From assembly GCF_017348835.2 (NCBI RefSeq), contig NZ_CP071375.1: a DNA stretch of 64,000 nucleotides; one strand, 5' to 3'. Shown here in pieces: positions 17,121 through 18,974 of the stretch. The notes beneath the pieces were generated by a model. That model was not told where the DNA came from. It did no database searches and was given only the letters and a program-made list of their open reading frames with translations. A program made the position numbers and the translations under genes. Within the stretch, counting starts at the first letter, position 1, and each line of letters opens with the position of its first letter. This DNA is from Escherichia coli. GTDB taxonomy: Bacteria; Pseudomonadota; Gammaproteobacteria; Enterobacterales; Enterobacteriaceae.

Positions 17121-18974
17121 TTACCTTTCCAGTCTTCTTGCTCCACGTTCAGAGAGACGTTCGCGTACTGCTGACCGTTGCTCGTTATTCAGCCTGGCAG
17201 TATGGTTACTGTCGTTTAGACGTTGTGGGCGGCTCTCCTGAACTTTCTCCCGAAAAACCTGACGTTGTTCAGGTGATGCTGATTGAACACGCTGGCGGGC
17301 GTTATCACGTTGCTGTTGGTTCAGTGGGCGCTGCTGTACTTTTTCCTTAAACACCTGGCGCTGCTCAGGCGAGGCGGACTGAATACGCTCACGCGCTGCG
17401 TCTCTTCGCTGCTGGATCTGTGAGTTAGTCTGCATTTTCTCGCGGACTGCCTGGCGCTGCTCAGGCGAGGCGGACTGAATGCGCTCACGCGCTGCCTCTC
17501 TTCGCTGCTGGTTGGGCGAGTTAGTCTGCATTTTCTCGCGAACTGCCTGGCGCTGCTCAGGAGAAGCTGACTGATAACGCTGACGAGCGGCGTCCTTTTG
17601 TTGCTGGGTCAGTGGTTGGCGACGGCTGAAGTCGCGGAAGTCGTCATAGCTCCCATAGTGTTCAGCTTCATTAAACCGCTGTGCCGCTGCCTGACGTTGG
17701 GTATCTCGTGTAATGACGGGTGCGGCGTGTGTTCGTTGTTGAAACTGCCTTGCTGCCGCCTGGCGCTGGCTGTCGCGCGTTGGGGCAGGTAGCTGCGTGG
17801 CACTCATTCCGCCGTTGACATCGGTTTGATGAAACCGCTTTGCTATATCCTGATCATGATAGGGCACACCATTACGGTAGTTTGGATTGTGCCGCCATGC
17901 CATATTCTTATCAGTAAGATGCTCACCAGTAATGCGGTTGAAATTGTTGACGTCGATATTGATGTTGTCGCCGTTGTGTTGCCAGCCATTACCGTCACGA
18001 TGACCGCCATCGTGGTGATTATAATCATCATCGTCATGATGATGATGGTCATGATCGTCGTCATCCCAGTCGATGCTGCTGAATAGTGCGTACGTGGTAG
18101 CAACGCCCATGCTATAGCCGAATCCGCGCACAAAGCTGTCAACAAACGGTTCTCCGGCTGGTGGTGGCAGATAAACCGGCGGATACGCAGTATTGGCCCA
18201 GTTCCCGTAAACCACGGTTGGGTTGTAGTTGGGAATATAGACCACATCAGGATTGGCGGGCTCAATGGAAATGACGGTTGTAGCAGGCTCTGTAATGACA
18301 GGGTTGGCAGTTGAAACGGTATTGGATGGTATGACGGGAGCCGTGACTGTCTGTTTTACCGGTACAGCTTTCTTCGTTGTGGTAATAACTTTCTGTTCGG
18401 TTGATGACTTCAGTGAACCGGTTTGTTGCGCCAGTTGCCGCAATCGCTGTACCGAGTCCATCACGTCCTGCGGCTGCGCCAGAAAAGCATCGCCCAGGTT
18501 TTGCACCCATTGCGGGTTTTCGCCCATCAACGCCATCAATTGTGGAAAGGCCACCAGTGATTTGACGCTAGCGTCCCACGGCTGGTCAGATACCGCCTGA
18601 ATAGCAGCATCGCCTTGTTTAAGTGGATTATCGTGCGACCATTGCACTGCTTGAGCAACGTTTGCCGGATAGGTTGATGCCATTAACACTTGTGAAAGCA
18701 GATAGTCGGGGTATAGCGCGACAGGTGCAACCCACTGGTCGATTTGTGCAGTGCTGAATGCGGATTTGACGACGGCGGGTGTTACGGGAGGTGCGGAAAC
18801 CGTTGCAGGAAGCGTAACCGCGGCAGCGTCAGACACAGCCAGTTGTGTCGATTGCGGTTCCACAGGCGCTTCCACTGTGCGGCTTTTTATATATAGCCCG
18901 GCAGAGGCGGCACAAAGCCCGGCACTGCAAATTAGCGCCAGCACATGGGGTTTAAACGGCAAAGTCATTTTCAT
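17121..18974 (-). CDS. yacH: secreted protein YacH (DUF3300 family), function unknown
   Basis: 617-aa ORF; signal peptide MKMTLPFKPHVLALICSAGLCAASA; His/Asp-rich tract; four C-terminal ~32-aa repeats. Confidence 0.85.
   Translation of the reverse strand: MKMTLPFKPHVLALICSAGLCAASAGLYIKSRTVEAPVEPQSTQLAVSDAAAVTLPATVSAPPVTPAVVKSAFSTAQIDQWVAPVALYPDYLLSQVLMASTYPANVAQAVQWSHDNPLKQGDAAIQAVSDQPWDASVKSLVAFPQLMALMGENPQWVQNLGDAFLAQPQDVMDSVQRLRQLAQQTGSLKSSTEQKVITTTKKAVPVKQTVTAPVIPSNTVSTANPVITEPATTVISIEPANPDVVYIPNYNPTVVYGNWANTAYPPVYLPPPAGEPFVDSFVRGFGYSMGVATTYALFSSIDWDDDDHDHHHHDDDDYNHHDGGHRDGNGWQHNGDNINIDVNNFNRITGEHLTDKNMAWRHNPNYRNGVPYHDQDIAKRFHQTDVNGGMSATQLPAPTRDSQRQAAARQFQQRTHAAPVITRDTQRQAAAQRFNEAEHYGSYDDFRDFSRRQPLTQQQKDAARQRYQSASPEQRQAVREKMQTNSPNQQRREAARERIQSASPEQRQAVREKMQTNSQIQQRRDAARERIQSASPEQRQVFKEKVQQRPLNQQQRDNARQRVQSASPEQRQVFREKVQESRPQRLNDSNHTARLNNEQRSAVRERLSERGARRLER
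17258..17641 (-). repeat. tandem 96-bp coding repeats (about 4 copies) in the 3' part of yacH
   Basis: cctggcgctgctcagg... unit recurs at 17354, 17450, 17546; encodes ERIQSASPEQRQAVREKMQTNS..QQRR repeats. Confidence 0.8.

Follow-up and report, generated by a model that had tools for sequence, protein, structure and literature searches.

What is the 96-nt repeat in the 3' part of yacH, and does the peptide that it encodes contribute to the protein that carries it? The 64,000-nucleotide stretch of Escherichia coli DNA analysed here (the window) contains the aceF-lpd-yacH-acnB region. Within it, the repeat is an ordinary variable minisatellite, an in-frame variable-number tandem repeat (VNTR), in the 3' part of a gene for a putatively exported protein. 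The best overall explanation, in which moderate confidence is placed, is that this variable in-frame minisatellite encodes, at the end of a DUF3300 protein, a cationic and multivalent tail that forms helices. Confidence is high in the genetic and structural description of the array; the functional reading of the tail is tentative.

Gene and protein architecture

The gene was initially annotated as yacH, encoding a DUF3300 protein, and both assignments hold. Pfam DUF3300 (PF11737) matches residues 75-333 of the product with E = 6.8e-78, and RefSeq records with this sequence are annotated as yacH, DUF3300 domain-containing protein. The features of the gene are as follows.

17121-18974, minus strand: yacH coding sequence, 617 aa plus stop; DUF3300 protein, putatively exported (open reading frame list, Pfam, RefSeq annotation)
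18888-18974, minus strand: predicted N-terminal hydrophobic export signal or anchor, residues 1-29 (hydropathy)
17976-18752, minus strand: DUF3300 domain, residues 75-333 (Pfam); the repeats (residues 457-584) fall outside it
18000-18065, minus strand: His/Asp-rich tract, residues 304-325, with 9-nt periodicity (Tandem Repeats Finder, 18025-18059)
17673-17780, minus strand: two related 13-aa motif copies upstream of the array, TRDSQRQAAARQF (residues 399-411) and TRDTQRQAAAQRF (residues 422-434)
17223-17606, minus strand: array of four 96-nt (32-aa) tandem units, residues 457-584
17511-17606, minus strand: unit 1
17415-17510, minus strand: unit 2
17319-17414, minus strand: unit 3
17223-17318, minus strand: unit 4
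17124-17222, minus strand: degenerate fifth unit and C-terminal end, residues 585-617, RLNDSNHTARLNNEQRSAVRERLSERGARRLER

Residues 11-29 form the sole strongly hydrophobic 19-residue window of YacH (Kyte-Doolittle 2.04), and canonical signal peptides are present in its Bordetella and Bradyrhizobium homologues; these two observations support the putative secretion of the protein, which the initial annotation had stated. A transmembrane segment at residues 281-299 is unsupported, hydropathy there being just 0.78. In the AlphaFold2 model, the DUF3300 part is helical over residues 75-200, with pLDDT 70-80. Differences between alleles identify the His/Asp-rich tract as a second length-variable site within yacH. 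Both copies of the 13-aa motif are kept across enterobacterial YacH. In the degenerate fifth unit, the stretch NEQRSAVRERL echoes PEQRQAVREKM, and the ending of YacH is kept in other genera.

The 96-nt array

In Tandem Repeats Finder the array scores 377 as a 96-nt period of 2.5 copies at 17354-17594, with 88% matches, and a repeat search of the window places four copies at exact 96-nt spacing at 17231-17614. The lag-96 signal extends from about 17634 down to about 17200, or roughly 4.5 units; its best 288-nt stretch holds 219 matches, against 120 ± 2.5 (maximum 129) in 200 codon shuffles of the Gln/Arg-rich tail. The units thus run head to tail, are longer than 10 nt and recur far beyond chance, as in an intragenic VNTR or minisatellite. 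The initial annotation had described about four direct coding repeats of a 96-bp unit in this part of the gene and proposed periodicity as the check; all three measurements agree with it. Its coordinates, 17258-17641, do fall on the array, with a unit register about 30 nt away from the one used here, the phase being arbitrary. The repeat peptide that it quoted (ERIQSASPEQRQAVREKMQTNS..QQRR) is correct, and translation of the four in-frame units yields the 32-aa Gln/Arg/Glu-rich modules that it described.

Periodicity of this kind could belong to an element that works as DNA or RNA instead of as protein: a REP-like repeat, a regulatory array or a small RNA. The periodicity itself, and nothing more, speaks for such an element. 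Against it, no Rfam family reaches its gathering score in 16900-19300, each unit spans a whole number of codons (96 = 32 x 3), every fetched allele keeps the frame, and substitutions follow the pattern of coding sequence constrained by purifying selection; its probability is practically negligible. A scan for promoters and terminators gave nothing above shuffles.

No literature description of the yacH repeat was found. The marker ms11 of a Shigella/E. coli MLVA typing panel is an E. coli VNTR with a 96-bp repeat, the same unit length as in yacH (PMC8215070). The yacH array is not ms11, since both ms11 primers are absent from the 64-kb window even with up to three mismatches allowed.

Copy-number variation

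Allele frequencies come from 120 of 5,426 complete E. coli genomes, drawn systematically as two samples of 60. Four units are carried by about 52% of the pooled 120 genomes (30 in the first sample and 32 in the second), three by about 46% (29 and 26) and two by about 2% (one in each). These calls were confirmed on fetched yacH alleles, a sample biased to annotated proteins, in which every gene is an intact open reading frame of 553, 585, 593, 617 or 648 aa; the 648-aa allele (P0004) has five units. The expectation that copy number differs between strains is therefore confirmed, with alleles of 2, 3, 4 and 5 units. Out-of-register duplications and deletions also occur in apparently intact yacH genes; given these and the range from two to five units, unit dosage cannot be critical.

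Four units are found in all listed O157:H7 and K-12 genomes, and three in the listed strains that have a REP element inserted between lpd and yacH; these strains look like members of phylogroup B2. The 3-unit alleles have at least three different architectures, with crossovers in different unit pairs, which point to independent unequal-recombination events. Neighbouring units have exact in-register runs of 20-31 nt in common, and whole units would be gained or lost by unequal homologous recombination or replication slippage between these stretches. Each unit is long, at 96 nt, and the copies match imperfectly (59-80% identity in DNA and 59-78% in protein), so copy number looks uniform within the sampled clonal groups.

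Intragenic VNTRs are known from bacterial envelope genes, an example being the repeat tract of E. coli tolA. Such envelope VNTRs and the yacH array are alike in their in-frame head-to-tail units, gain or loss of whole units and a polar helical peptide, which in YacH is predicted. Unlike the tolA tract, which lies between two domains, the yacH array stands at the extreme C-terminus. This difference bears on whether the repeats could act as a helical spacer or ruler that, like TolA domain II, spans the periplasm, with copy number setting a distance. An envelope protein that has an anchor-like segment at its N-terminus and polar repeats predicted to be helical would suit a spacer, and tolA itself has a copy-number-variable intragenic repeat. 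The array, however, comes at the far C-terminus after long low-confidence regions, and with only 33 residues following it there is no distal domain to position, so YacH does not resemble a TolA-domain-II-like spacer. Such a role is very unlikely.

Selection and evolution of the units

Comparisons between units give dS from 0.3 to saturation and dN of 0.12-0.33, and comparisons between orthologues put omega at 0.08-0.14 in the repeats, a level also seen over the remainder of YacH. The SPEQRQ core is kept in the units although the synonymous sites of most unit pairs are heavily diverged or saturated. Judged by these substitutions, the units are old and under purifying selection, with omega near 0.1. 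All three units of E. albertii read [AT]TPEQRQ.F, and every E. coli unit reads ASPEQRQ; the peptide sequence is thus homogenised within species, in the manner of concerted evolution.

By sequence comparison, the 32-aa unit is specific to Escherichia. Other enterobacteria have 17-18-aa Gln/Arg repeats (NPTxQQQQRRExA) at the corresponding place, together with a single S(A/T)TPxQRQ segment; in Escherichia, a pair of one NPTxQQQQRRExA-type and one S(A/T)TPxQRQ-type segment is amplified as one 32-aa unit. More widely, the DUF3300 tails of Klebsiella, Raoultella, Kluyvera, Enterobacter, Bordetella and Bradyrhizobium occupy the same post-domain position and are Arg-rich and basic. Gln-richness marks the enterobacterial tails. 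A QQRREAA / RDAARER core is common to enterobacterial and Bordetella tails and absent from the Bradyrhizobium tail. Basic tails are thus found family-wide: the one in the Bordetella homologue contains RDAARERAQSA repeats, that of the Bradyrhizobium homologue is rich in Gly and Arg, and both proteins end in Gly/Arg-rich runs.

Predicted structure and composition of the tail

In the full-length AlphaFold2 model, the tail helices begin at P472, P504, P536 and P568. A model of the tail alone (pTM 0.25) gives local pLDDT of 70-84, with helix breaks exactly at every Ser-Pro. The helices, 12-30 residues long, lack confident packing, and the tertiary arrangement of YacH is not predicted confidently in either model (pTM 0.25-0.35). 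The repeats had initially been called helical, a description that the models support as a prediction, at moderate local confidence only. The 128 residues of the array are 24% Gln and 17% Arg, with a net charge of +13, about +3 per 32-aa unit, and a low hydrophobic moment. Foldseek found no match in the PDB at E < 1 for the full-length or the tail-only model, and a PDB sequence search returned just His-tag and designed-helix noise (E > 0.8). No NCBIfam family matches at E <= 1, and no Pfam match covers the repeats.

Could the repeat region be a neutral, intrinsically disordered low-complexity linker with no sequence-specific role, in which copy-number changes are tolerated noise? The low global model confidence, the want of a fold match and the extreme composition of the tail are consistent with this, as are the different repeats at the equivalent place in other genera and the coexistence of 2-5-unit alleles with odd partial duplications. 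Some Salmonella have also lost the gene: in several strains of Salmonella Typhimurium, yacH is a pseudogene (PMC3391293), so the whole protein is dispensable in a relative. Against a neutral linker stand the omega of the repeats, which matches the low value of the DUF3300 domain, the core retained over heavily diverged or saturated synonymous sites, and the predicted helices that break at every Ser-Pro. An RDxxRQRxQS-type motif recurs, moreover, even in the Bordetella homologue. The linker reading is rather doubtful.

Resemblance to CpxP and Spy

In each unit, A-S-P-E-Q stands at the predicted helix start, with Ser for Thr and Ala for Leu relative to the LTXXQ motif, and SPEQRQAVREKMQ resembles CpxP LTEHQRQQMRDLMQ and LTPEQQAVLNEKHQQR. 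In a single BLASTP comparison, the tail matches CpxP marginally (39% identity over 59 residues, E = 0.004). Likenesses between YacH and the LTXXQ family (PF07813: CpxP, Spy, ZraP) are an (S/T)-P-E-Q-type motif where a basic, Gln-rich helix begins (in YacH a predicted one), a periplasmic location (predicted for YacH) and a link to the Cpx regulon, since yacH is CpxR-regulated (PMC9600279). The units might then be CpxP/Spy-type LTXXQ modules, and YacH a Cpx-controlled periplasmic chaperone or signalling modulator with multiplied client-binding helices.

Searches with profiles argue against this. YacH has no Pfam LTXXQ, DUF3106 or Metal_resist match even at E <= 10. When a profile built from 54 distinct YacH units was searched, its 25 best matches included shuffled copies of E. 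coli CpxP, Spy and ZraP, and none of the three proteins themselves. The pTM 0.25 model of the tail, a prediction only, shows no long bent hairpin or cradle-shaped dimer, and Foldseek against the PDB gave no Spy or CpxP match. Whereas the LTXXQ proteins have one long amphipathic hairpin, YacH has tandemly repeated modules in which the motif Leu is absent and the helices are short, almost without a hydrophobic face. Membership in PF07813 is rejected on the missing Pfam match and the unit-profile result, and a motif-level resemblance remains. YacH is unlikely to be such a chaperone or modulator. It is a shade less likely still that the SPEQRQ helices represent the client- or sensor-binding element of LTXXQ proteins in a minimal, tandem form, whose 2-5 units tune cationic-peptide sensitivity or Cpx signalling between lineages.

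The tail gave 31 matches among 1.84 billion protein representatives; most of them are fragments of YacH from E. coli, so the search pointed to no wider family. The sole non-YacH sequences detected by the tail or the unit profile are metagenome proteins with tandem TPEQ(R/K) repeats (P0142, P0150 and P0138), a result that also favours an LTXXQ link. Their repeats, of the MTPEQRDQMRERMQQ, MTPEQKAAAREKVQS or LTPEQRQEIREGG type, measure about 37 aa in P0138 and 15-16 aa in the other two, P0142 and P0150, which have hydrophobic signal-like segments at the N-terminus and weakly match Pfam LTXXQ or DUF3106 (E = 4e-5 and 2.9e-5). DUF3106 (PF11304) itself is rejected for YacH, as only these two distant proteins match it, and weakly. 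Unlike YacH, the TPEQ(R/K) proteins have no DUF3300 domain and have other unit lengths, and the likeness may be convergence on a helix-capping motif.

A proposed cationic, multivalent tail

On the preferred explanation, a variable minisatellite encoding a cationic tail, each module would be a polar helical segment that starts from a Ser-Pro-Glu-Gln helix cap and is sometimes kinked at an Asn/Pro junction. The tail would be a chain of such short cationic helices without a fixed tertiary fold. Each unit would add about 30 helical residues along with its positive charge (~+3), so copy number would set both length and valency. Carried by a putatively exported DUF3300 envelope protein, the tail might act by charge and valency, through multivalent binding to an anionic envelope partner, which is the weakest step of the proposal. 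Deletion of yacH improves survival in protamine, an Arg-rich peptide (PMC9600279), and the literature search found no published YacH function beyond this phenotype and CpxR regulation.

On its own, the array matters little, being one more copy-number-variable coding repeat for the E. coli list. It calls for caution in short-read assembly and allele calling. In the sampled genomes it is also a lineage-informative length marker, separating the four units of O157:H7 and K-12 from the three of the REP-insertion strains. The natural series of 2-5-unit alleles can be used to probe the cationic DUF3300 tail against the CpxR/protamine hint (PMC9600279).

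The 96-nt repeat array in yacH

The 3' part of yacH contains tandem 96-nt units, each encoding 32 amino acids, as the initial annotation had proposed. Tandem Repeats Finder (TRF) detects a period of 96 nt at 17354-17594 (2.5 copies, 88% matches), and a repeat search finds four copies at exact 96-nt spacing at 17231-17614. The best 288-nt stretch holds 219 lag-96 matches, against 120 ± 2.5 (maximum 129) in 200 codon shuffles of the Gln/Arg-rich tail, the C-terminal part of the protein. TRF also detects a weak 51-nt half-period within the array. The span first proposed (17258-17641) and its recurrence points (17354, 17450 and 17546) all fall within the periodic region, about 30 nt off the unit register, the phase being arbitrary; the repeat peptide quoted with them was correct. 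In the register of the reading frame, the features are:

17121-18974, minus strand: yacH open reading frame, 617 aa (ORF list)
17511-17606, minus strand: unit 1, residues 457-488
17415-17510, minus strand: unit 2, residues 489-520
17319-17414, minus strand: unit 3, residues 521-552
17223-17318, minus strand: unit 4, residues 553-584
17124-17222, minus strand: degenerate fifth unit, the C-terminus of YacH, RLNDSNHTARLNNEQRSAVRERLSERGARRLER

Identity among the units is 59-80% in DNA and 59-78% in protein.

The yacH gene and its locus

The surrounding region is the aceF-lpd-yacH-acnB region of E. coli; in the ORF list, yacH is flanked by the 3' end of lpd on one side and by acnB, which is transcribed divergently, on the other. 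RefSeq records whose DNA matches give the gene name yacH and the product name "DUF3300 domain-containing protein". DUF3300 (residues 75-333, E = 6.8e-78) is the sole Pfam domain at E ≤ 10, and NCBIfam has no family matching YacH. The nearby aceF (13526-15418) has a well-known internal repeat, three lipoyl domains separated by Ala/Pro-rich linkers.

A second length-variable site in yacH is a His/Asp-rich tract, DDDDHDHHHHDDDDYNHHDGGH (18000-18065, minus strand; residues 304-325), with a 9-nt period (TRF, 18025-18059). It is eight residues longer in locus L004 (strain ZLWT) and seven shorter in the database protein P0112, and its variation accounts for the 610-621-aa scatter in YacH length. The tract could be a candidate metal-binding site. 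In E. coli strain E69 (CP089930.1; L008, about 2650-3360), some 700-770 bp are inserted near codon 367, and the read-through peptide GNDSNLLIVFYVQIMPDDFVMQLHRF presumably corresponds to an IS1 end. In several Salmonella Typhimurium strains, an 8-bp deletion in the corresponding tract has turned yacH into a pseudogene (PMC3391293, PMC10048834).

In strain ZLWT and similar strains, the spacer between lpd and yacH is longer by about 171 bases (L004, 1190-1360). The additional bases are REP/BIME-type repeats, matching the REP-derived Rfam entries naRNA4 and ES036, and the strains carrying them look like phylogroup B2.

Copy number among strains

Unit number differs between strains, as expected at the outset: alleles with two, three, four and five units were found. 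Two megablast searches covered 5,426 complete E. coli genomes, with records sampled evenly down the ranking; unit number was inferred from the match span, and each span class was checked on fetched representatives. The 741-nt query gave four units in 30 records, three in 29 and two in one, none being unresolved; the 1301-nt query anchored in lpd gave 32, 26 and one, with one unresolved. The 1376-nt and 1280-nt spans in the latter search are due to the REP/BIME-type insertion. As an estimate from 120 sampled records rather than a census, roughly half of genomes have four units and about 46% have three, while two-unit and five-unit alleles are rare. Fetched three-unit alleles encode 585 aa (L001, L002, L003 and L019), or 593 aa in L004 with its longer His/Asp tract; the two-unit allele L005 encodes 553 aa, and the five-unit protein P0004 has 648 aa. 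Out-of-register variants also occur: P0001 (662 aa) has a 45-aa duplication of the segment preceding the array, P0038 duplicates about 17 aa, and P0105 has five motifs and a partial deletion.

Unit number is uniform inside the clonal groups represented among the sampled records. O157:H7 and K-12 have four units in every genome listed, and strains with the REP-element insertion have three, rarely two. The array is not a hypermutable contingency locus; one of its two chief uses is as a lineage marker. MLVA marker ms11 of the Shigella/E. coli typing panel, which also has a 96-bp unit, is a different locus, neither of its primers being in the window.

The window's own 3' allele (17060-17800) is rare, with ≥99% identity over 741 nt in 2 of 5,415 genomes; K-12 is 96.1% identical to it. 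Most alleles have TNPQN and TNPQI in their units, and the window allele has TNSPN and TNSQI instead. Synonymous divergence between the window and ZLWT yacH reaches 0.25-0.57, a level that looks high for a chromosomal gene of E. coli and may reflect inter-lineage recombination or mis-paired repeat units.

How the array changes

Neighbouring units have exact in-register runs of 20, 23, 15 and 31 nt in common. Units would be gained or lost through unequal homologous recombination or slippage between such stretches. When each quarter of a unit is assigned to the most similar window unit, at least three distinct three-unit architectures appear among the fetched alleles: [1/2 hybrid][3][4] in L001, [1][2/3 hybrid][4] in L003 and L019, and, in L002 and L004, one that ends in a 3/4 hybrid. 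L005, with two units, reads [1][3/4 hybrid]. Since the crossovers lie in different unit pairs, they point to independent events. Three units are present in E. albertii (L007) and in a divergent Escherichia genome (L006), and window units 2 and 3 are separated by a synonymous distance of just 0.31, other pairs being at 0.8 or saturated. This suggests that the array first had three units and gained the fourth by a later duplication.

Constraint on the peptide

Most window unit pairs have heavily diverged or saturated synonymous sites, with dN of 0.12-0.33. Omega is 0.15 and 0.24 in the two diverged pairs where it is computable, and 0.74 for the recently duplicated units 2 and 3. Between the window's yacH and its orthologues (E. 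albertii, L006, L004 and L001), omega is 0.08-0.14 in the repeat region, the same range as the DUF3300 domain (0.05-0.10), with dS possibly inflated by unit mis-pairing. The motif is [AT]TPEQRQ.F in each of the three units of E. albertii and ASPEQRQ in every E. coli unit, which is the signature of unit homogenisation (concerted evolution). It follows that the repeats are old, maintained and homogenised rather than recent junk.

The main rival to a functional reading of the array is a tolerated low-complexity linker. In its favour are the free coexistence of two to five units and the loss of yacH in Salmonella; the low omega within the repeats and the conserved motif speak against it. Within what a negative Rfam search of the locus, the conserved reading frame and the substitution pattern can show, a role at the level of DNA or RNA is excluded.

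Composition and predicted structure

The four units are rich in Gln (24%), Arg (17%), Ala (10%) and Glu (9%) and contain no Gly. Their net charge is +13 per 128 residues, about +3 each, and both mean hydrophobicity and hydrophobic moment are very low. The full-length AlphaFold2 model, built on an alignment of 18 sequences, is of low overall quality (mean pLDDT 45); residues 75-200 are helical at pLDDT 70-80, and the repeats form two helices per unit at 46-66, with helix starts at P472, P504, P536 and P568. The tail-only model (residues 434-617) has a mean pLDDT of 68, with helices at 70-84 interrupted exactly at each Ala-Ser preceding Pro. A Ser N-cap with Pro in position N1 is a favoured way to begin a helix. 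One 30-residue helix crosses a unit boundary where the window allele lacks the usual Pro. The pTM of 0.25 means that no tertiary arrangement is predicted for the tail. Foldseek found no PDB match for either model, and a PDB sequence search returned nothing real, so the "helical repeats" of the initial annotation stand as a local prediction only. A TolA-like spacer, which would carry something beyond the array, is unlikely because nothing follows it.

The unit motif is similar to the LTXXQ motifs that CpxP carries, LTEHQRQQMRDLMQ and LTPEQQAVLNEKHQQR, and one BLASTP comparison of the tail with CpxP aligned 59 residues at 39% identity (E = 0.004). YacH itself has no LTXXQ or DUF3106 match in Pfam at E ≤ 10. 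A profile of 54 distinct YacH units does detect TPEQR-repeat proteins; its 25 best matches include shuffled copies of CpxP, Spy and ZraP but not the E. coli proteins themselves. The weak non-YacH matches P0142 and P0150 are TPEQR-repeat proteins that have Pfam matches of about 1e-5 to LTXXQ or DUF3106. As the YacH helices are also predicted to be short and without a hydrophobic face, membership of LTXXQ was rejected. What the two have in common is a motif at the helix start and, after it, a basic helix rich in Gln; the likeness may be convergent.

Function

yacH responds to Cpx activation, its transcription is lowered by protamine, and a deletion mutant survives protamine better than the wild type (PMC9600279). 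It is among the genes strongly down-regulated when a rob mutant is exposed to butanol (PMC7537768). On the best, though tentative, reading, YacH would be an exported envelope protein and the array the part of its tail that is multivalent, cationic and helix-forming, unit number setting length and charge. Confidence is high in the genetic and structural description of the array. Intragenic variable-number tandem repeats in envelope genes are well known, and the array is a new instance; no description of it was found in literature outside subscription journals. Besides marking lineages, it is chiefly of value as a natural series of alleles in which a DUF3300 protein that is still uncharacterised can be studied.

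Origin and relatives of the unit

A search of the tail against 1.84 billion representative proteins gave 31 matches, most of them fragments of E. coli-type YacH. In other genera, different repeats fill the same place in the tail. Klebsiella, Raoultella, Kluyvera, Enterobacter and another enterobacterium have two to four 17-18-aa units of NPTxQQQQRRExAKSHLQ type, after which come one S(A/T)TPxQRQ segment and an ending that is conserved. In the Escherichia unit, the first half, NPQNQQRREAARERIQS, has QQRREAA in common with these units, and the second half, ASPEQRQAVREKMQT, corresponds to the single segment; Escherichia thus appears to have amplified both as one 32-aa unit.

More distant DUF3300 proteins, from Bordetella (L017, 991-2922) and Bradyrhizobium (L018, 1297-3015), have canonical signal peptides. 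The former reads RDAARERAQSADRDAARQRAESA and then a Gly/Arg-rich end, with RDAARERAQSA/DRDAARQRAESA motifs before long Gly/Arg runs. The latter has a Gly/Arg-rich tail with GDRA and RGG-like runs, beyond which lies a C-terminal segment of about 90 residues of ordinary composition. A tail that is basic and low in complexity, placed behind DUF3300, is therefore a trait of the family, the exact repeats being lineage-specific. Rhizobial DUF3300 genes are reported to encode signal peptides and always to be the direct upstream neighbour of a DUF2950 gene (PMC4653623); yacH has no DUF2950 neighbour in the 64-kb window.

P0137, a 1346-aa metagenomic protein among the matches to the tail in the representative-protein search, has about 20 tandem 33-34-aa repeats of LSPEQRAVVFAALKERLPGMIQSxxDLxxVLxY type. 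Apart from the SPEQR motif it is unrelated to YacH, and its repeats recall TAL-effector-like repeats by their length and LxPEQ start.
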